DNA of 64,000 nucleotides from NCBI RefSeq assembly GCF_003018255.1, contig NZ_CP027440.1; one strand, written 5' to 3'. Both the position numbers and the translations under genes were made by a program. Source of the stretch: Escherichia coli (lineage in GTDB: Bacteria > Pseudomonadota > Gammaproteobacteria > Enterobacterales > Enterobacteriaceae). The notes below the pieces were generated by a model, which was given only the letters and a program-made list of their open reading frames with translations, was not told the DNA's origin and ran no database searches. Below, piece by piece: positions 2,421 through 11,501 of the stretch; position 1 is the first letter of the stretch; the number at the start of each line of letters is the position of its first letter.

Positions 2421-4610
2421 TTAATCAGCTAATGGCTGCGGGCGACCAATCAAATACCCTTGCAGATATTGCACCCCGAGCTTATGCAATAGCGCCTGCT
2501 GCTGTTGCGTCTCGACAAACTCCGCGACCACACTCAATGACTTCGCTTTCGCCAGATCGGTAATTGATCTCACAATCATCGCATCCAGCGTGTTCGTGAC
2601 GATATCTTTCACAAAGACGCCATCAATTTTGATGATATCAGCCTGCAAACGCTTTAACCGTTCGTAGTTGGCATATCCGGTGCCAAAGTCATCAATCGCA
2701 ATCCGGAAACCAAACTTATGCAGCTGCTCGATGTTGTACATGCTGCTTTCTGCGTTAGAAAACGCCTGCTCCTCGGTGATCTCAAGAATGACTGCCTGCG
2801 GGGAGATGTGATAACGCTTAAACAGACGAATAATCCGCCCGGCAATATTCTTTTGCAGCAGCGTGAGCGGCATTAAATTGACTGAAAAGCGCGGGCCTTT
2901 TTTGTCGCAAGGATGTGTTGCCAGCCACTTCAACAGGGATTCCAGCACTTGCAAATCAAAACGCGCGCTAAGGTTAAACTGAGCAATAAGGGGCAGAAAC
3001 TTATCCGGGGTCATAATGCCGCCGTCATATTTCAGTCGCGCGAGGATCTCATCATAACCTTCACCCTCTTTGTTGCGAATTGGCTGGGCGTAGAGCAGCA
3101 AATCACCCTGATCTAACGCCGTACGAATGGTATTCAGCAATAGCACCTGTTTAGTGGTCTGCCCGGAAACCATCTCCTCTCTGCTATCCAGCGCCAGCAC
3201 ATGGTGATGTGCGCAGGATTGCTCCGCCAGCCAGCTTAACTGCCCCAACAAGGGTTGCAGGGTTTCCTGATTTCCATCAAAACGCCCCCAGGCAGCACCA
3301 TAGCCCATATCCAGCCCGGTATTGTTCCAGTGAATTTGCCGACTATTCAGGATGTTAACCATATGCTGGAGTCGCCCTTCCGTTTCCGGTCCACTCAGCA
3401 CTAACAGCAGTTCACTACCCGGCAATTGATACAACTTTTCGTTTTCCTGCATCAACGGCAGCAGCGTACGGTAAATTGATCGGATACAGTGAACGCGCAT
3501 CATTAAGCCGTAATGACGACTCATAAACTCAAGATTATCAATGCGCAGGCAGCAAAAACTCTTGCCCGCCTCTTGCTCCGGCGCTTGTTCTAACGCACGA
3601 AAGTTGGGTAGGAGCGTTAACGGATCGGTCAGCGCCTGCAAATGCCAGCGGCGATTAAGCCATTCACTGCGATGATAAATGCGCACCATATAGAGCAGGC
3701 AAACGCTAAAGGAAATCAGCACCGCGAGAATAAATGCCAGCGAATATTCGGTTAGTACCCCTTGCAAAAAGTTCTGGTTGTAATTCAGCAGGCAAAGCGT
3801 TGAAACAGCCCAGGTGAGATTTAAAAACGGATAGCGAAGCTTACCGACACCGAGGGTAAAGATGATAAAGAAAACAGGTACCAGATAACCAGCAATAAAG
3901 TCATTTTCATACGGTGTGCACATCAGAAGTAGCAGCACGCTAAGAGCTGCCAGCCAGCTTAAGGTAAATGCGCGTTTCTCTTTGCTCAACGACGGAGCGA
4001 TATCCCTACGCCACAATATCTGTGCAAAGTGGGGACTTACAATCATGCGGGCGAGATAGTAAAAAAGCATGTTGTAAATCAGCACTGCGGTGAAAAGGCT
4101 TAGCAAATCAACGACCGTGAAAATGGCATCCGCATCGCCGAAAAAGGTAGATATCTTTAGCGGAAAATCAAAGAAATTTCCCACAAGATACATGCTGCAT
4201 TTGATGCCAATCGGCGCCACCAAACCAAGCCAGAAAAGACGTTGCCAGACATATCGGCTGGTCAATCCATAACGCCAACGCGTCCCCAGCTGCCAGCGTA
4301 ATATTGCGCAGGCACACAACACCACAAACGTCTGGCTGCCGAGCATGACCGCGGTCTGTAAAAAAGAGAGATGAAAGTTCCACAGATTGGTGCAAAACAT
4401 CCCGCATAAAACGGGGACGACACCGCGCCAGCCAAAGATAAACAAGATTGACAGCATTACGCACAGTGGCATCCACGCCAGAAAGATATAACTGGAGTGG
4501 ATAATGGCAAGTGGCGAAATAAAACGGGATAGCTGAATAAGTACCACGGTGAGCGTAAACGCTAGTGTGAATATCTTGATATTTTTTATCAGGTTATGCT
4601 CCACAAACAT
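2421..4610 (-). CDS. pdeA: c-di-GMP phosphodiesterase PdeA (YfeA): MASE1 membrane domain, degenerate GGDEF, EAL domain (729 aa)
   Basis: ORF-track 749-aa frame; start moved to internal ATG 4610 (MFVEHNLIK...); C-terminal EAL signatures YDEILARL and DDFGTGYA present, no GG(D/E)EF motif found. Confidence 0.88.
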   Translation of the reverse strand: MFVEHNLIKNIKIFTLAFTLTVVLIQLSRFISPLAIIHSSYIFLAWMPLCVMLSILFIFGWRGVVPVLCGMFCTNLWNFHLSFLQTAVMLGSQTFVVLCACAILRWQLGTRWRYGLTSRYVWQRLFWLGLVAPIGIKCSMYLVGNFFDFPLKISTFFGDADAIFTVVDLLSLFTAVLIYNMLFYYLARMIVSPHFAQILWRRDIAPSLSKEKRAFTLSWLAALSVLLLLMCTPYENDFIAGYLVPVFFIIFTLGVGKLRYPFLNLTWAVSTLCLLNYNQNFLQGVLTEYSLAFILAVLISFSVCLLYMVRIYHRSEWLNRRWHLQALTDPLTLLPNFRALEQAPEQEAGKSFCCLRIDNLEFMSRHYGLMMRVHCIRSIYRTLLPLMQENEKLYQLPGSELLLVLSGPETEGRLQHMVNILNSRQIHWNNTGLDMGYGAAWGRFDGNQETLQPLLGQLSWLAEQSCAHHHVLALDSREEMVSGQTTKQVLLLNTIRTALDQGDLLLYAQPIRNKEGEGYDEILARLKYDGGIMTPDKFLPLIAQFNLSARFDLQVLESLLKWLATHPCDKKGPRFSVNLMPLTLLQKNIAGRIIRLFKRYHISPQAVILEITEEQAFSNAESSMYNIEQLHKFGFRIAIDDFGTGYANYERLKRLQADIIKIDGVFVKDIVTNTLDAMIVRSITDLAKAKSLSVVAEFVETQQQQALLHKLGVQYLQGYLIGRPQPLAD

Positions 4611-4781
4611 GAGTACACTACTCTCACTGATCGGGGTTTTCAGGCACACAAATAATAAGTTTATTCGCATCGCGAAGCAAACAGGGGCCAGCCTGTTGCC
4701 GATTTTTCATCCAATGATGCTTTCACCAGGCGGCGCTAACCCGGACGTAGACTGTATTACAAAAGCGGCAAAAAGCAGAGA

Positions 4782-4812
4782 CAAAAAACCCCCGCTTTAC
4801 AGCGAGGGTTTG
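4782..4812 (-). terminator. Intrinsic terminator downstream of alaX
   Basis: On the minus strand, stem CCCTCGC / GCGGGGG (one G-U pair) followed by TTTTTT, immediately 3' of the tRNA. Confidence 0.5.
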
Positions 4813-4817
4813 AAATT

Positions 4818-4893
<76 letters not shown>

Positions 4894-4932
4894 ACGATGC
4901 GTTTACGTACCAAATTTGCTGGGTGCAAAATT

Positions 4933-5008
<76 letters not shown>

Positions 5009-5040
5009 ATCACGTAAAGCTTGTCGAGTTGACGGGCGGC

Positions 5041-5069
5041 ATCATATGAATTCCGCCCGAATGTGTCAA
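5041..5069 (-). promoter_or_regulatory. Sigma70 promoter of the alaW-alaX tRNA operon
   Basis: Minus strand TTGACA-N17-TATGAT followed by GC-rich discriminator GCCGCCCG, about 30 nt upstream of the alaW 5' end. Confidence 0.6.
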
Positions 5070-5243
5070 CGGCAAATTGCCACGTGTAGTTTCAATCGCT
5101 GAAAAATCAGGCAAATGAACAATTTTGGAAAACCGCTCGCATTCAGTAGTTATTCATGTCACGGTTTCCTGTAAAGTGGTGTTATAAAATGAACTACTAA
5201 TAGACCCACATACATTCAGGGAATTGTTATGTTCAAGGAGAGG

Positions 5244-5588
5244 ATGACGCCAGATGAACTTGCCAGACTGACCGGCTATAGCCGCCAGACCATTAATAAA
5301 TGGGTACGCAAGGAAGGCTGGACAACGTCACCAAAACCAGGCGTCCAGGGTGGCAAAGCTCGACTGGTTCACGTCAATGAACAGGTTCGTGAATATATTC
5401 GCAATGCTGAACGTCCAGAAGGTCAGGGAGAAGCGCCAGCCCTTTCTGGTGATGCGCCGCTTGAAGTGTTGCTGGTGACACTGGCGAAAGAGATGACGCC
5501 AGTTGAACAAAAACAGTTTACATCCTTGCTTCTGCGGGAAGGGATTATCGGATTGTTACAACGCTTAGGGATTCGCGATAGCAAATAA
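5244..5588 (+). CDS. yfeC: Putative DNA-binding protein YfeC (114 aa)
   Basis: ORF-track frame 5229..5588; start placed at ATG 5244 (MTPDELARL...) after AGGAGAGG; paralogous to the adjacent YfeD. Confidence 0.85.
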   Translation: MTPDELARLTGYSRQTINKWVRKEGWTTSPKPGVQGGKARLVHVNEQVREYIRNAERPEGQGEAPALSGDAPLEVLLVTLAKEMTPVEQKQFTSLLLREGIIGLLQRLGIRDSK

Positions 5589-5589
5589 T

Positions 5590-5982
5590 ATGAAAAGATT
5601 ACGCAATAAAATGACCACCGAAGAACTGGCTGAATGCCTCGGTGTGGCTAAACAAACTGTTAACCGTTGGATCAGAGAAAAAGGCTGGAAAACGGAAAAA
5701 TTTCCCGGCGTGAAAGGCGGTCGTGCCAGACTTATTCTGGTCGATACGCAAGTTTGCGAGTTTATTCAGAACACGCCAGCCTTCCATAACACACCGATGC
5801 TTCTGGAAGCCGAAGAACCCCTTGCCGAATACGCACCGGGTATTCGCACTCCTGCTTATCGGCAAATCATCAGCGCAATAGACAACATGACTCACAGTGA
5901 GCAGGAAAAAGTTGCGCAATTTTTGTCACGCGAAGGAATTCGTAATTTCCTTGCTCGTCTCGACATAGATGAATCAGAATAA
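5590..5982 (+). CDS. yfeD: Putative DNA-binding protein YfeD (130 aa)
   Basis: ORF-track 5590..5982; N-terminal half alignable with YfeC; starts 1 nt after the yfeC stop. Confidence 0.85.
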   Translation: MKRLRNKMTTEELAECLGVAKQTVNRWIREKGWKTEKFPGVKGGRARLILVDTQVCEFIQNTPAFHNTPMLLEAEEPLAEYAPGIRTPAYRQIISAIDNMTHSEQEKVAQFLSREGIRNFLARLDIDESE

Positions 5983-5984
5983 AT

Positions 5985-6024
5985 AAAAAACGGCAGGGGT
6001 ATCTCTCCTGCCGTTTATCTTTTA
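5985..6024. terminator. Bidirectional intrinsic terminator between yfeD and gltX
   Basis: A-run, stem CGGCAGG / CCTGCCG, then TTTATCTTTT; between convergent stops at 5982 and 6033. Confidence 0.7.
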
Positions 6025-6032
6025 TGCGCTAA

Positions 6033-7448
6033 TTATTGCTGATTTTCGCGTTCAGCAATAAAAGCCAGCGCTTTGTTGATACGCTCGATACTGCGGGTCT
6101 TACCGATTGCGTGAACGGTAACATCCAGCGCCGGAGACTGCCCCGCACCGGTTACGGCGACACGCAGCGGCATACCAACTTTACCCATACCCACTTCCAG
6201 CTCATCCGCCGTCGCCTGAATAGCGTGATGAACGTTTTCAGCGGTCCAGTCAGTAATCGCAGTCAGTTTGTCACGAACCACTTCCAGCGGCTGACGCGCT
6301 ACCGGACGCAGATGTTTTTTCGCGGCGTCGGCATCGAACTCAGCAAAATCTTCGTAGAAATAACGGCAGCTCTGTGCCATCTCTTTCAGCGTCTTGCAGC
6401 GTTCGCCCAGCAGTTTCACCAGATCAGCCAGCTGCGGGCCGTTACGGGTATCGATATTTTCCTGCTCAATGTGCCATTGTAAGTGAGTAGCAACATACTC
6501 CGGCGGCAGCGCGTTAATGTAGTGATGGTTCAGCCACAGCAGCTTGTCGGTGTTGAACGCACTGGCAGATTTGCTGACGGCATTCAGAGTGAAGTATTTG
6601 ATCATCTCTTCACGAGTGAAGATTTCCTGATCGCCGTGGGACCAGCCCAGACGCACCAGATAGTTCAGCAGTGCTTCTGGCAAATAACCGTCATCACGAT
6701 ACTGCATTACGCTGACCGCCCCGTGACGTTTGGACAGTTTTTTACCGTCATCGCCGTTGATCATAGAAACGTGCGCGTAAACCGGTACCGGCGCTTTCAG
6801 GGCTTTAAGAATGTTGATCTGGCGCGGCGTGTTGTTGATATGGTCTTCGCCACGGATAACATGGGTGATTTCCATATCCCAGTCATCAACAACCACACAG
6901 AAGTTATAGGTTGGGGAACCATCGGTACGGCGAATGATCAGATCATCCAGCTCCTGGTTGCTGAACTCAATCGGGCCACGGATCTGATCGTCAAAAACAA
7001 CAGAACCTTCCTGCGGGTTAGCAAAACGTACAACGCACGGTTCATCATCAGCATGATGCTCATGGCTGTGGCGGCAGCGACCGTCATAACGCGGCTTCTC
7101 ACCTTTCGCCATTTGCTCTTCGCGCAGCGCTTCCAGGCGCTCTTTAGAACAATAGCATTTATAAGCTGTGCCCTCTTCCAGCATCTGATCGATCACCGCG
7201 TTGTAGCGATCAAAACGTTTGGTCTGGTAGTACGGACCTTCATCCCACTCCAGGCTCAGCCAGTTCATGCCATCCATAATGGCTTCGATAGCTTCCGGCG
7301 TGGAACGCTCAAGATCGGTGTCTTCAATACGCAGCACGAACTCACCGCCGTGGTTACGTGCAAAAAGCCAGGAGTAAAGAGCAGTACGCGCGCCGCCAAC
7401 GTGCAGATAGCCTGTTGGGCTTGGCGCGAAGCGAGTTTTGATTTTCAT
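6033..7448 (-). CDS. gltX: Glutamyl-tRNA synthetase (471 aa)
   Basis: ORF-track; [31 protein letters not shown]... with class I HVGG motif. Confidence 0.97.
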
Positions 7449-7661
7449 GAAATGGCCTTACGTTTAGAAAGATGCCGACAACCGGCAAATCCTGGAAAAA
7501 TTGAGTGGGCGATATTCTATCACTCCCGCCTGATTCCTCAATGTAGTTCGGGTTGCAACCTTACGCATTATTGTTTTCGTTGACAAATTGCGCAACACGG
7601 TCTGTTTTGCGATCATCTTGCTTAAATTTACGACGAACGAACAATTTCTTTAGAAAATGCG

Positions 7662-7689
7662 TTGACTCATTTTGAACTCTCCCTATAAT
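7662..7689 (+). promoter_or_regulatory. Sigma70 promoter of the valU-valX-valY-lysV tRNA operon
   Basis: TTGACT-N16-TATAAT with AT-rich upstream region; -10 ends 17 nt before the first tRNA. Confidence 0.65.
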
Positions 7690-7706
7690 GCGACTCCACA
7701 CAGCGG

Positions 7707-7782
7707 GGGTGATTAGCTCAGCTGGGAGAGCACCTCCCTTACAAGGAGGGGGTCGGCGGTTCGATCCCGTCATCACCCACCA
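7707..7782 (+). tRNA. valU: tRNA-Val (UAC)
   Basis: GGGTGATTAGCTCAGCTGGGAGAGCACCTCCCTTACAAGGAGGGGGTCGGCGGTTCGATCCCGTCATCACCCACCA, 76 nt. Confidence 0.95.
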
Positions 7783-7826
7783 ACTACTTTATGTAGTCTC
7801 CGCCGTGTAGCAAGAAATTGAGAAGT

Positions 7827-7902
7827 GGGTGATTAGCTCAGCTGGGAGAGCACCTCCCTTACAAGGAGGGGGTCGGCGGTTCGATCCCGTCATCACCCAC
7901 CA
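7827..7902 (+). tRNA. valX: tRNA-Val (UAC), copy 2
   Basis: Identical 76-nt sequence. Confidence 0.95.
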
Positions 7903-7948
7903 CTTTCTCGCCAGCTAGATTTCTTGTAACAATGTGAAGTACCGAAGT

Positions 7949-8024
7949 GGGTGATTAGCTCAGCTGGGAGAGCACCTCCCTTACAAGGAGGGGGTCGGCG
8001 GTTCGATCCCGTCATCACCCACCA
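7949..8024 (+). tRNA. valY: tRNA-Val (UAC), copy 3
   Basis: Identical 76-nt sequence. Confidence 0.95.
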
Positions 8025-8028
8025 CTTC

Positions 8029-8104
8029 GGGTCGTTAGCTCAGTTGGTAGAGCAGTTGACTTTTAATCAATTGGTCGCAGGTTCGAATCCTGCACGACCC
8101 ACCA
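8029..8104 (+). tRNA. lysV: tRNA-Lys (UUU)
   Basis: GGGTCGTTAGCTCAGTTGGTAGAGCAGTTGACTTTTAATCAATTGGTCGCAGGTTCGAATCCTGCACGACCCACCA, 76 nt, 4 nt after valY. Confidence 0.95.
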
Positions 8105-8110
8105 ATGTAA

Positions 8111-8136
8111 AAAAGCGCCCTAAAGGCGCTTTTTTG
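8111..8136 (+). terminator. Intrinsic terminator of the val/lys tRNA operon
   Basis: Stem AGCGCC / GGCGCT with loop CTAAA followed by TTTTTT. Confidence 0.75.
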
Positions 8137-8214
8137 CTATCTGCAATTTGCGAAATTGCCTGATGCGCTTCGCTTATCAGACCAACTATGTCCGGCAGTT
8201 CCCGTGCCTCTCAT

Positions 8215-9099
8215 CTACTGCGCCAACGCCGCCAGCAGTTTAACCAGCGCGGGCGTCACCTGCTGCGTTTCATAAACAATATATAAGTCTGCCGGGATGC
8301 GTTCTTTGAGCGGACGGAATATGACACCGGGCCAGTTCATCTGCGCGTAGCTGTCCGCTATCAATGTGATACCAATACCCATACTGACCATGGCGAGTAC
8401 CGTTTGCGGTTCATTAACTTCGCGAATAACAACCGGTGAAAATCCCACCTGCTGGCAAACTCGCTGCAAAAAATCCCAGTCAGTGTACACGGGCGGCATT
8501 GTAACGAAATACTCGTCACGTAGCGCTTCCAGCGGGACGGTGGAAAATGATGAGAGATGATGCTCTTCAGGCATCGCCACCAGAAACGCCGATTCATGCA
8601 ACCGTAAGCTGGTAAAACCAGTCGGTGGTTCTGTCGCCATTCGCCAGATCCCGGCATCAAGTTCGCGGCGTTCCAGCAAGGCCATTTGCATCGCAGGCAT
8701 CTTTTCGCGAAACAGAACTTCAACGTTAGGATTTTCTCTAAGGAATCGCCGCATAACCGGGCGCATCCGTCCCCACATTGCCGTTCCCACAACCCCGAGT
8801 TCAATCCGCCCTGCTTCTCCCCGACCTATTTGTTCAACCCGAGCCAATACATTATTTGCATTCACCAACAATCGACGCGATTCTTCCATCAAGATTTTGC
8901 CCGCGTGTGTCAGTACGACGCTGCGCGAATGGCGAATAAAAAGCTGCGTGCCGAGTTGATTTTCCAGCTCTTTAATATGAATGCTGAGCGGAGGCTGAGA
9001 CATATTTAAACGCGCTGCTGCGCGACCAAAATGCAACTCTTCCGCTACGGCAAGAAAATAACGGAGCAACTTAAGATCTGTTCTGTATACGCGTTCCAT
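8215..9099 (-). CDS. xapR: LysR-family activator of the xanthosine operon, XapR (294 aa)
   Basis: ORF-track frame 8215..9114; start placed at ATG 9099 (MERVYRTDLKLLRYFLAVAEELHFGRAAARL...); N-terminal HTH. Confidence 0.9.
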   Translation of the reverse strand: MERVYRTDLKLLRYFLAVAEELHFGRAAARLNMSQPPLSIHIKELENQLGTQLFIRHSRSVVLTHAGKILMEESRRLLVNANNVLARVEQIGRGEAGRIELGVVGTAMWGRMRPVMRRFLRENPNVEVLFREKMPAMQMALLERRELDAGIWRMATEPPTGFTSLRLHESAFLVAMPEEHHLSSFSTVPLEALRDEYFVTMPPVYTDWDFLQRVCQQVGFSPVVIREVNEPQTVLAMVSMGIGITLIADSYAQMNWPGVIFRPLKERIPADLYIVYETQQVTPALVKLLAALAQ

Positions 9100-9139
9100 A
9101 ATTAAGTGCTCCATATAATAAATACATCGTATTAAATTA

Positions 9140-9298
9140 TCATGGCATAAAGTATTTCACCACCAGATATCCGACATACATAAACACAATGGATAATATA
9201 CCCGGCAATACATTTGGAACAGGAATAGGTAATCGCACGATTGTAAACAAAGCACCAATGCCAAAACCAACGCCAGAAGAAAATAAAATATCTTTCAC
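9140..9298 (-). CDS. Candidate unannotated small ORF (52 codons, GTG start), hydrophobic peptide
   Basis: Below the 60-aa ORF-track cutoff; read by hand: MKDILFSSGVGFGIGALFTIVRLPIPVPNVLPGILSIVFMYVGYLVVKYFMP; AGG 7 nt upstream of GTG; in-frame TAA two codons upstream; AT-rich so could be chance. Confidence 0.15.
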   Translation of the reverse strand: MKDILFSSGVGFGIGALFTIVRLPIPVPNVLPGILSIVFMYVGYLVVKYFMP

Positions 9299-9350
9299 TA
9301 ATTAACCTTTATCATAAAAGCAGCCCCAAGGAACAGAGCTGCGAATCCTT

Positions 9351-10607
9351 TTAATGTGTAACTGAACGATGCGTTATCTTTTCAGGGTCATGGTTATATT
9401 TAAACCCAAAGAAAAATATCACTGCGAGGAAAAGAGCATACCCTGCAAACATCAGCCAAATGGTATGCCAATCTTTTACGCCATCCACCGAGAAGTAATC
9501 CACTGCCATACCGCTCAGAATCGAGCCAACCCATGCGCCGACGCCATTTACCATCGTCATAAAAAGGCCCTGGGCGCTGGCACGAATGCTGGAATCAACT
9601 TCCTGTTCGACAAAGACCGAACCAGAAATATTGAAGAAATCGAATGCACAACCGTAAACAATCATCGACAGCAACAGCAAAATAAACCCGGTTGGTGATG
9701 GATCGCCATAGGCAAAGAAGCCAAAGCGCAGCGTCCACGCCACCATACTCATCAGCATGACGGTTTTAATACCGAAACGCTTCAAAAAGAACGGTATCGT
9801 CAGAATGAAACCGACTTCAGCCATCTGTGAAACTGACAGTAAAATGGACGGGTATTTCACCACGAAGCTATCAGCAAACTCAGGATTACGGGCGAAATCA
9901 TGCAGGAACGGGTTGCCAAAAACGTTGGTAATTTGCAGCACCGCACCCAGCATCATGGCGAAGAGGAAAAAGATAGCCATGCGTGGATTTTTAAACAGCA
10001 CGAAGGCATCCAGACCCAGCTTGCTGGCAAGCGATGTAGTCGCTTTTTTCTCCGCAACCGGAATCTTCGGCAAAGTCAGCGCATAAGCCGACAGCAGCAA
10101 TGACGCACCGGACGCGATATACAGCTGCAGACTACTCAATTCCAGATGCAGCAGGCTTACTGCCCACATGGCGACAATGAACCCCACCGTACCAAAAACG
10201 CGAATGGGCGGGAAAGCGGTCACCGGGTCAAGCCCTGCCTGGGCAAGACAGGAATAAGAGACGCTGTTCGATAACGCAATAGTCGGCATAAACGCCATCG
10301 CATTGACTAACATCACCCAAAACATCATATCCGGATCAGTTACGGATGCCGCATAAAAAAGTACGCCCGCACACACCAGGTGACACAGCATGTATGCACG
10401 TTCTGCACGCAGCCATTTGTCTGCGATGATCCCCATTATACCAGGCATAATAATCGCGGCGATCCCTTTGGAACTGTAAACCATGCCAACATTAGCGCCG
10501 GTGAAATGAAGGGTATTAATCATGTAAGAACCGAGGGTAACCAGCCAGCTCCCCCAGATAAAATATTGCAAAAAGGACATTACCTTTAAGCGCAAAGCGA
10601 TGCTCAT
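9351..10607 (-). CDS. xapB: Xanthosine:H+ symporter XapB (418 aa)
   Basis: ORF-track; multi-pass membrane protein MSIALRLKVMSFLQYFIWGSW..., paralogous to NupG-type transporters. Confidence 0.9.
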   Translation of the reverse strand: MSIALRLKVMSFLQYFIWGSWLVTLGSYMINTLHFTGANVGMVYSSKGIAAIIMPGIMGIIADKWLRAERAYMLCHLVCAGVLFYAASVTDPDMMFWVMLVNAMAFMPTIALSNSVSYSCLAQAGLDPVTAFPPIRVFGTVGFIVAMWAVSLLHLELSSLQLYIASGASLLLSAYALTLPKIPVAEKKATTSLASKLGLDAFVLFKNPRMAIFFLFAMMLGAVLQITNVFGNPFLHDFARNPEFADSFVVKYPSILLSVSQMAEVGFILTIPFFLKRFGIKTVMLMSMVAWTLRFGFFAYGDPSPTGFILLLLSMIVYGCAFDFFNISGSVFVEQEVDSSIRASAQGLFMTMVNGVGAWVGSILSGMAVDYFSVDGVKDWHTIWLMFAGYALFLAVIFFFGFKYNHDPEKITHRSVTH

Positions 10608-10667
10608 AATCGTTTCCTTGTCGCATCATATGGCCTCACTCAGTAAGGCCGTTTATTGTTGTTTTAC

Positions 10668-11501
10668 TCAGGCAATTTTGCGCAGAAAGCCGCAAATAAG
10701 ATTAATAAAGTTTTGCTTTGAGAGTTCCGCTGCTGCCAGCGTTTGGGCATGAGAAAGCTTCACGTCACTCAGACCTTCCGCCATGTTGGTAATCGCAGAG
10801 ACCGCAACGACTTTAAGTTCGCAATGGCGAGCTGAAATAACCTCAGGCACCACAGACATACCAACAACATCCCCACCAATAATTTGCATCATACGAATTT
10901 CCGCCGCAGTCTCGAAATTCGGCCCCGGATACGAGACGAACACGCCCTCCGTCAGAGGGAACCCCTCTTCTTTCGCCACTTTTTGTAACAGTGCGCGGTA
11001 TTCCGCATCGTAGGCATTCGCCAGCGAGAAGAAGCGCTCACCAAAACGTTCATCATTAAGACCCACCATCGGCGTTCCCGGCATGGTGTTGATGTGATCT
11101 TTCAATGCGACCAGACTGCCGGCCCCCACTTCAGGACGCAGTGAGCCAGCCGCATTGGTGCAGAACAGCAACTCGCAGCCCAGCAACTTAAAGGTACGGA
11201 TTGCATCCGTCATGATGGTCATCCCACGACCTTCGTAGAAATGTCCGCGACCTTTCATGCACGCCACTGGCACCCCCTGGAGATACCCCAGCACCAGCTC
11301 ACCCGCATGACCGTGTACGGTACTTACCGGGAACCCAGGCAGCTTTTCGTAGGAAATTGCGACCGCGTTCTCAATCTGATCGGCCAGCGCGCCCAGCCCG
11401 GAACCTAACATAAAGGCCACTCGTGGCGTGAAATCAGGTTTATAAGTCTTGATAATATCTACGCAATACAGTGGGTTATGAGAAAACTGAGCCTGAGACA
11501 T
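10668..11501 (-). CDS. xapA: Purine nucleoside phosphorylase II / xanthosine phosphorylase XapA (277 aa)
   Basis: ORF-track; MSQAQFSHNPLYCVDIIKTYKPDFTPRVAFMLGSGLG... PNP family. Confidence 0.95.
   Translation of the reverse strand: MSQAQFSHNPLYCVDIIKTYKPDFTPRVAFMLGSGLGALADQIENAVAISYEKLPGFPVSTVHGHAGELVLGYLQGVPVACMKGRGHFYEGRGMTIMTDAIRTFKLLGCELLFCTNAAGSLRPEVGAGSLVALKDHINTMPGTPMVGLNDERFGERFFSLANAYDAEYRALLQKVAKEEGFPLTEGVFVSYPGPNFETAAEIRMMQIIGGDVVGMSVVPEVISARHCELKVVAVSAITNMAEGLSDVKLSHAQTLAAAELSKQNFINLICGFLRKIA

Follow-up and report, generated by a model that had tools for sequence, protein, structure and literature searches.

In a stretch of 64,000 nucleotides of Escherichia coli DNA (contig NZ_CP027440.1, assembly GCF_003018255.1; the window throughout this text), the spacer between the xanthosine genes xapB and xapR contains a small open reading frame (ORF), xapX. 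Our best explanation, which we consider very likely, is that xapX is a genuine gene encoding a 52-residue helical-hairpin protein of the TIGR03510 (DUF1427-related) family. That the gene is real and that it belongs to the XapX family is close to certain. It is already catalogued as XapX (DUF1427-related) and is not a new kind of system. An earlier reading of the same DNA, made from its letters (the sequence-only reading), had proposed a real gene here for a small hydrophobic protein with two segments, and this central proposal was strongly supported by our analysis. The gene and its ribosome-binding element are:

9140..9298, minus strand: xapX coding sequence, 52 codons plus TGA stop, GTG start; XapX-domain (DUF1427-related) small protein
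9306..9310, minus strand: Shine-Dalgarno-like AAAGG, 7 nt before the xapX GTG

The GTG start codon is located at 9298..9296, an in-frame TAA lies two codons 5' of it, and the TGA stop is directly followed by a TAA. Translation of the frame gives MKDILFSSGVGFGIGALFTIVRLPIPVPNVLPGILSIVFMYVGYLVVKYFMP. The same GTG start, an AGG 7 nt upstream, the upstream in-frame TAA and this peptide had been described in the sequence-only reading, and all of them matched the sequence, the peptide exactly.

The ORF by itself means little. The G+C content of xapX is 37%, compared with 48-53% for xapB, xapR and xapA, and a complete ORF of at least 52 codons appeared in 857 of 5000 (17%) dinucleotide-preserving shuffles of the xapB-xapR spacer. 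The presence of a 52-codon ORF alone is therefore not significant, and the warning in the sequence-only reading that an AT-rich region inflates chance ORFs was justified. The evidence for coding came from the substitution pattern. Between the window haplotype and the K-12-type haplotype, xapX shows 6 differences, all at the third codon position and all synonymous, and both haplotypes encode the same protein, WP_000651752.1. When the orthologues from Salmonella, Enterobacter, Citrobacter and Chimaeribacter were compared, the ratio of nonsynonymous to synonymous substitution rates (dN/dS) was 0.04-0.30, with synonymous sites near or beyond saturation (proportion of synonymous differences, pS, 0.49-0.92). 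Third-position substitutions were in excess (p = 3e-7 to 1e-3 under equal rates); between E. coli and Salmonella, the substitutions at codon positions 1, 2 and 3 numbered 6, 2 and 26.

Consistently, the frame is 52 codons long in these four genera and 51-52 codons in all carriers (13 enterobacterial lineages), and its start codon alternates between GTG and ATG among them. Salmonella, Enterobacter, Chimaeribacter and Citrobacter have purine-rich Shine-Dalgarno-like equivalents (AAAGG, GGGGG, AAGGAGG, GAAGGA) equally far from the start. Among 9 orthologues with identities as low as 71%, 24 of the 52 residues are invariant. These comparisons show that purifying selection acts on the peptide encoded by xapX, and because the substitution pattern is that of selection on the peptide, the readings as a chance ORF or a leader peptide are excluded. 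Purifying selection and frame conservation, which the sequence-only reading had named as the points to check, thus both came out in favour of the gene.

The family assignment rests on a curated model. The xapX product matched NCBIfam TIGR03510 "XapX domain-containing protein" with 64.2 bits (E = 5.8e-18; curated cutoff 27.8), residues 4-50 aligning with profile positions 2-48 of 49. RefSeq, through the Prokaryotic Genome Annotation Pipeline (PGAP), places a coding sequence at exactly 9140..9298 and calls it "DUF1427 family protein" (WP_000651752.1), so that the window protein, sitting at the xapB-xapR position, is the same entity as the XapX of TIGR03510. Of 5,426 complete E. coli genomes, ~4,060 matched, and each record sampled from among these carried the PGAP coding sequence. 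The exact peptide was found on at least 1000 contigs and in UniRef as J7QTV3_ECOLX, under the name "DUF1427 family protein" or "XapX domain". It also appears in Table S1 of PMC11188072, a 2024 survey of micro-proteins in enterobacteria, among small proteins already annotated, as "xapX domain protein, TRANSMEMBRANE". In the K-12 MG1655 record (NC_000913.3), no gene is annotated between xapR (b2405) and xapB (b2406), and the ORF is there intact (complement of 2522518..2522676); PGAP annotation of K-12 derivatives does include the gene. The statement in the sequence-only reading that this is not an annotated gene thus holds for the K-12 MG1655 record and fails for the thousands of E. coli genomes annotated by PGAP and for TIGR03510, which is named XapX. 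Since PGAP annotates xapX elsewhere, the non-recognition reflects the K-12 reference only. Judging from the name, we infer that the family was called XapX after the locus between xapB and xapR.

The relation to Pfam is looser. A Pfam search with E. coli XapX returned no family at E <= 1, below the gathering threshold of PF07235 (DUF1427), and 24 of 31 relatives matching the XapX model hit PF07235 weakly (best E = 1.6e-7), so the two are related at the superfamily level only. TIGR03510 itself matched all 31 diverse relatives examined. A profile search of 1.8 billion representatives gave 77 relatives at E <= 1e-3, all of them small (21-106 residues). The PF07235 DUF1427 proteins (roughly 65-100 residues; Proteobacteria and other phyla) share the core of a GxxxG helix, an LPIPAP turn and a glycine-rich helix. 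The longer DUF1427 subfamily differs from XapX by an extra N-terminal YVYVGRNE and a basic C-terminal tail ending in FGRP, and it is linked to FmdA/AmdA-type amidase genes rather than to nucleoside genes. Full-text literature searches returned only unrelated character strings for "XapX" and one 2005 domain-census paper, with no functional data, for "DUF1427". Nothing was found when a second enterobacterial DUF1427 paralogue was searched by tblastn against plasmids.

Structure prediction by AlphaFold2 from a 31-sequence alignment gave helix 2-20, loop 21-30 and helix 31-50, with a mean predicted local distance difference test (pLDDT) score of 92. The parts of the protein map to the window as follows:

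9239..9295, minus strand: helix 1 (residues 2-20), glycine-rich GVGFGIG with the family-wide G11xxxG15; pLDDT ~92-94
9212..9232, minus strand: LPIPVPN turn (residues 23-29), conserved more strongly than any other family motif
9149..9208, minus strand: helix 2 (residues 31-50), family pattern GxxG/SxxG/FxxxGY; pLDDT 93-97

The two hydrophobic segments of the sequence-only reading thus correspond to a predicted two-helix hairpin. Across the family alignment the core consists of the GxxxG helix, in which G11 and G15 are almost invariant, the P-x-P-x-P turn (L23-P24-I-P26-V/A-P28-N29), and helix 2 with G33, G/S36, G/F39 and G43-Y44. The prolines P24, P26 and P28 are invariant in the 31 diverse members, G33 is widely conserved, and G43 is invariant. 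It is highly probable that XapX is a membrane hairpin. In the PDB, a profile search gave only a non-significant match (E = 1), and Foldseek found no matches.

The neighbouring genes of the cassette are:

9351..10607, minus strand: xapB, xanthosine/H+ symporter, immediately upstream of xapX
10668..11501, minus strand: xapA, xanthosine phosphorylase, first gene of the cassette
8215..9099, minus strand: xapR, LysR-type activator, immediately downstream of xapX (RefSeq start)

As the sequence-only reading stated, xapX lies on the same strand as xapAB and downstream of it. The spacer length of 236 bp given there holds with an upstream ATG at 9114, with which the longest xapR ORF begins; with the RefSeq start at ATG 9099, the xapB-xapR spacer is 251 nt. 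The GGAG before ATG 9099 is kept in Salmonella, which lacks the upstream ATG, so ATG 9099 is the likelier xapR start. xapX fills most of this spacer and leaves a gap of 40 nt to xapR. Between gltX and xapR, the window also contains a transfer RNA array Val-Val-Val-Lys at 7551-7948, followed by the RefSeq-annotated RtT small RNA (~7979-8104); the repeats of the array produce families of short near-identical ORFs in the ORF list of the window.

xapX was next to xapB in all 13 carrier lineages examined, and no xapX was found away from xapB in the Enterobacterales loci examined. The order xapA-xapB-xapX-xapR is shared by Escherichia, Salmonella, Citrobacter, Enterobacter, Pseudocitrobacter, Entomohabitans, Phytobacter, a Kluyvera-like genome and Chimaeribacter. 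In Chimaeribacter the cassette lies between metG and the rha genes, not beside gltX; the order is kept even in this different chromosomal neighbourhood, and the xap cassette thus moves as a unit. In two Budviciaceae, Limnobaculum parvum and Pragia fontium, deoC separates xapX from xapR (xapA-xapB-xapX-deoC-xapR; locus extracts 4365-5313 and 5001-5947). The xapX-deoC gap of Limnobaculum is only ~22 nt, which places xapX inside a catabolic operon there. Within complete E. coli genomes, the presence of xapX tracks that of the whole xap cluster (4062 versus 4072 genomes), with one place per genome at the median. The cluster is missing from ~24% of these genomes, some with an IS1-associated deletion that leaves only xapR. 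In strain FDAARGOS_944 (NZ_CP065613.1, extract 3051-4147), IS1 stands in place of xapX, xapB and xapA, and xapR then adjoins yfeN.

The xapR-xapX-xapB-xapA cluster (8215-11501) exists as two deep E. coli haplotypes, ~94.5% identical over 3.3 kb. The window-type haplotype (at least 99% identity) was found in ~1,100 genomes and the ~94.5% haplotype in ~2,560, including K-12. For a chromosomal locus of E. coli, haplotypes this far apart are unusual.

Outside Enterobacterales, family loci were scanned with the single pattern LPIP[AV]PNVL, which samples part of the family, together with four metagenomic look-ups. A subfamily of 65-90 residues carrying YVYVGRNE was found directly upstream of FmdA/AmdA-family amidase genes in Pandoraea, Oxalicibacterium, Afipia, Geminicoccaceae, Sulfobacillus, Syntrophorhabdaceae and metagenome-assembled genomes (MAGs) of Bacillota; in Sulfobacillus the gap to the amidase gene is only 15 nt. 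Genes for amidase-signature proteins, M19 dipeptidases and AraC or GntR regulators are often nearby. In Oxalicibacterium, the subfamily gene lies between two divergent FmdA/AmdA paralogues. No published description of this association between the DUF1427 subfamily and FmdA/AmdA was found. Among the short relatives, one overlaps a gene for flavin mononucleotide (FMN) reductase by 4 nt, and others lie next to genes for a CsoR-like repressor or a DUF1934 protein or, in a nanohaloarchaeal MAG, next to RadC. The common theme of the family is operons for the catabolism of small nitrogen-containing compounds. In an AT-rich MAG of an uncultured member of Enterobacterales (extract 2702-8332), a 56-residue XapX-like ORF has a CNT-type nucleoside transporter gene and yjdM on one side and deoB-deoD on the other. 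This ORF beside deoB-deoD would be a second, independent link to nucleoside catabolism, in a single case.

Two further elements of the spacer bear on expression:

9314..9342, minus strand: terminator-like hairpin, G+C-rich (9342..9320), with TTTTAT after it; situated past the xapB stop and ahead of the xapX ribosome-binding site
9115..9143, minus strand: ATGATA-17-TATTAT, a weak sigma-70-like match that reaches across the xapX stop codon into the xapX-xapR spacer; candidate xapR promoter

The hairpin has a stem of 9 bp by pattern scan. Six positions of the element are substituted in the K-12 haplotype. At 3 of them, each within the 3' arm, a G-U pair becomes A-U or G-C, so that both E. coli haplotypes retain the stem. 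Salmonella and Enterobacter have a comparable hairpin with a T-run; Citrobacter retains the T-run with no hairpin predicted in its spacer, and in Limnobaculum a hairpin is present without a clear T-run. In the xapX-less spacer of Klebsiella, an inverted repeat GGCGGG...CCCGCC followed by a T-rich segment was read from the sequence, not folded. Because this conserved terminator-like hairpin separates xapB from xapX, read-through into xapX must be leaky.

The sigma-70-like match is the sole promoter-like match in 8900..9600, and such matches were no more numerous than in shuffled sequence. Its position at the end of xapX is too far downstream for it to drive xapX itself; the xapR promoter probably overlaps the xapX 3' end, with the xapR transcript start predicted near 9108-9115. 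A genomic SELEX (systematic evolution of ligands by exponential enrichment) study reported an in vitro peak of RpoN holoenzyme in the xapR-xapB spacer at the old coordinate 2,520,564 (PMC8743547). Coordinate conversion placed this peak at about window position 9164 (MG1655 ~2,522,542), inside the xapX 3' end. No match to the RpoN -24/-12 consensus better than 3 mismatches was found in the spacer, and the peak is thus not explained by a recognisable motif. According to work cited in PMC7205307, xapR expression is constitutive and not autoregulated. A literature search for a mapped xapR start site returned nothing useful.

On this basis we propose the following role for XapX. The two glycine-rich hydrophobic helices, with the invariant LPxPxP turn between them, would span the inner membrane. 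The xanthosine-induced xapA promoter, by elimination the likeliest source of the transcript, would be read partially through the leaky hairpin after xapB. XapX would then be made only on operon induction and, as follows from partial read-through, at a lower level than XapA and XapB. We regard expression by this read-through route as an evenly balanced question. The protein may assist or modulate the module for nucleoside uptake and catabolism without being essential to it, most simply by packing against XapB. This role in xanthosine uptake and catabolism is speculative, and we offer it as a tentative proposal. The small inner-membrane proteins AcrZ, KdpF, MgtS and SgrT bind and modulate the transporters AcrB, KdpABC, MgtA and PtsG, respectively. 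XapX resembles them in being ~50 residues long, hydrophobic, encoded beside a transporter gene, non-essential and lost in some lineages. It differs from them in having two helices where they mostly have one, and in a wider family that is not linked to transporters; its partnership with XapB is putative. In a broader form, XapX and its relatives could be a class of two-helix micro-proteins, with a glycine zipper and an LPxPxP turn, that dock on transporters or recruit soluble catabolic enzymes to the membrane, and XapX of E. coli would tune XapB-mediated xanthosine uptake on induction; this version is somewhat more doubtful still.

Several observations weigh against a role of this kind. Neither Klebsiella huaxiensis nor Lelliottia amnigena gave an xapX by tblastn, and both have xapA-xapB-xapR intact at the ancestral site, with xapB-xapR spacers of 100 nt and 67 nt. 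The XapB of Klebsiella is 88-89% identical to that of E. coli, versus 75-78% in several xapX carriers, so the absences look like secondary losses; since these two lineages keep xapA-xapB-xapR without it, xapX is an accessory that the cassette does not require. Elsewhere the neighbours of the relatives (amidases, FMN reductase, the CsoR-like repressor and unrelated genes) are not NHS transporters, which disfavours a XapB-specific mechanism for the whole family. Any transcript coming from upstream must cross the hairpin, and transcripts may mostly end before xapX; read-through from xapAB, as suggested by the sequence-only reading, remains plausible with this obstacle ahead of the xapX ribosome-binding site. 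One searchable start-site supplement from ribosome profiling with retapamulin (Ribo-RET) had no entry for the xapX coordinates, xapB or xapR. The missing entry is a weak negative, because the xap operon is probably silent without xanthosine. Finally, the positive charges K2, R22 and K48 are on both faces of the hairpin and give no topology call. In the longer subfamily the C-terminal tail is strongly basic and the loop neutral, a pattern that would fit best with cytoplasmic N and C termini and an outward-facing proline turn.

The main rival to docking on XapB is that the hairpins of the XapX family act autonomously, either by glycine-zipper self-association into a small oligomeric pore or as a general membrane factor for catabolic operons of small nitrogen-containing compounds, for example by passing substrate or product, and do not bind XapB specifically. 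The two GxxxG-type glycine-rich helices and the invariant proline turn are conserved across phyla, which speaks for such a role. It is also favoured by the YVYVGRNE subfamily directly upstream of FmdA/AmdA amidases in Burkholderiales, Rhizobiales, Bacillota, Sulfobacillus and Syntrophorhabdaceae, by the relative that overlaps an FMN reductase gene, and by the MAG relative beside deoB-deoD and a CNT-type transporter, whose fold is unrelated to that of XapB. The two lineages whose xap cassette does without xapX fit as well. However, a 52-residue hairpin with almost no polar residues lining its helices is an unlikely conduit for xanthosine or xanthine, and xapX of Enterobacterales was never away from xapB in the loci examined. 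We therefore treat the autonomous role as possible, without favouring it.

Much less probable is that the ORF is a cis-acting translated spacer, in which the peptide would be without function and ribosome traffic would serve to adjust xapR expression or what becomes of the xapAB 3' end. Its position would suit this, since it fills most of the spacer up to 40 nt before xapR and begins right after the terminator-like hairpin, and since the only promoter-like match and the reported RNA polymerase binding peak overlap its 3' end. But the amino-acid sequence is conserved, both by dN/dS and by the 24 invariant residues; the protein family occurs in unrelated contexts and phyla; deoC, not xapR, comes next after xapX in Budviciaceae; and lineages without xapX still have xapR. 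The pattern of conservation largely refutes the reading as a translated spacer or leader.

A type I toxin-like peptide of the Hok/Ldr/TisB/Ibs kind, which would damage the membrane and be silenced by antisense RNA or messenger RNA structure, is just as improbable. The ORF is small, very hydrophobic and AT-rich and follows a stable hairpin, and 3 of the 31 relatives gave weak matches to a Pfam holin family (best E = 2.6e-4). On the other side, no Rfam family matched on either strand of 8800..9700 (no search with PADLOC or toxin models was made), and the gene is present as a single copy per genome with fixed synteny in a catabolic cassette. Type I toxins typically have a narrow, multi-copy distribution, whereas the XapX family is broad, cross-phylum and operonic with enzymes. 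Least probable of all is that the frame is open by chance in non-coding, AT-rich DNA and that pipelines annotated it for this openness alone: the frequency of such ORFs in shuffled spacers, the low G+C content, the missing Pfam match, the unannotated K-12 reference and the absence of a ribosome-profiling record in the one supplement searched would all agree with it, but it is refuted by dN/dS and the third-position excess, and it is also opposed by the invariant length, the start and Shine-Dalgarno element conserved across genera with saturated synonymous divergence, the significant match to a curated family model and the confident structure prediction.

In conclusion, our results extend the layout of a classic inducible operon by two elements, a terminator-like hairpin and a conserved small protein predicted to lie in the membrane. 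If XapX docks on XapB as proposed, the textbook operon xapAB-xapR would have an overlooked third structural gene, absent from the K-12 reference annotation. Users of K-12 gene lists miss xapX in knock-out collections, in ribosome-profiling pipelines and in xapB or xapR constructs that cut through the spacer. Nothing that we found points to an unusual mechanism; the gene is worth a line in the K-12 annotation, and the DUF1427/XapX family gains a tractable model organism.

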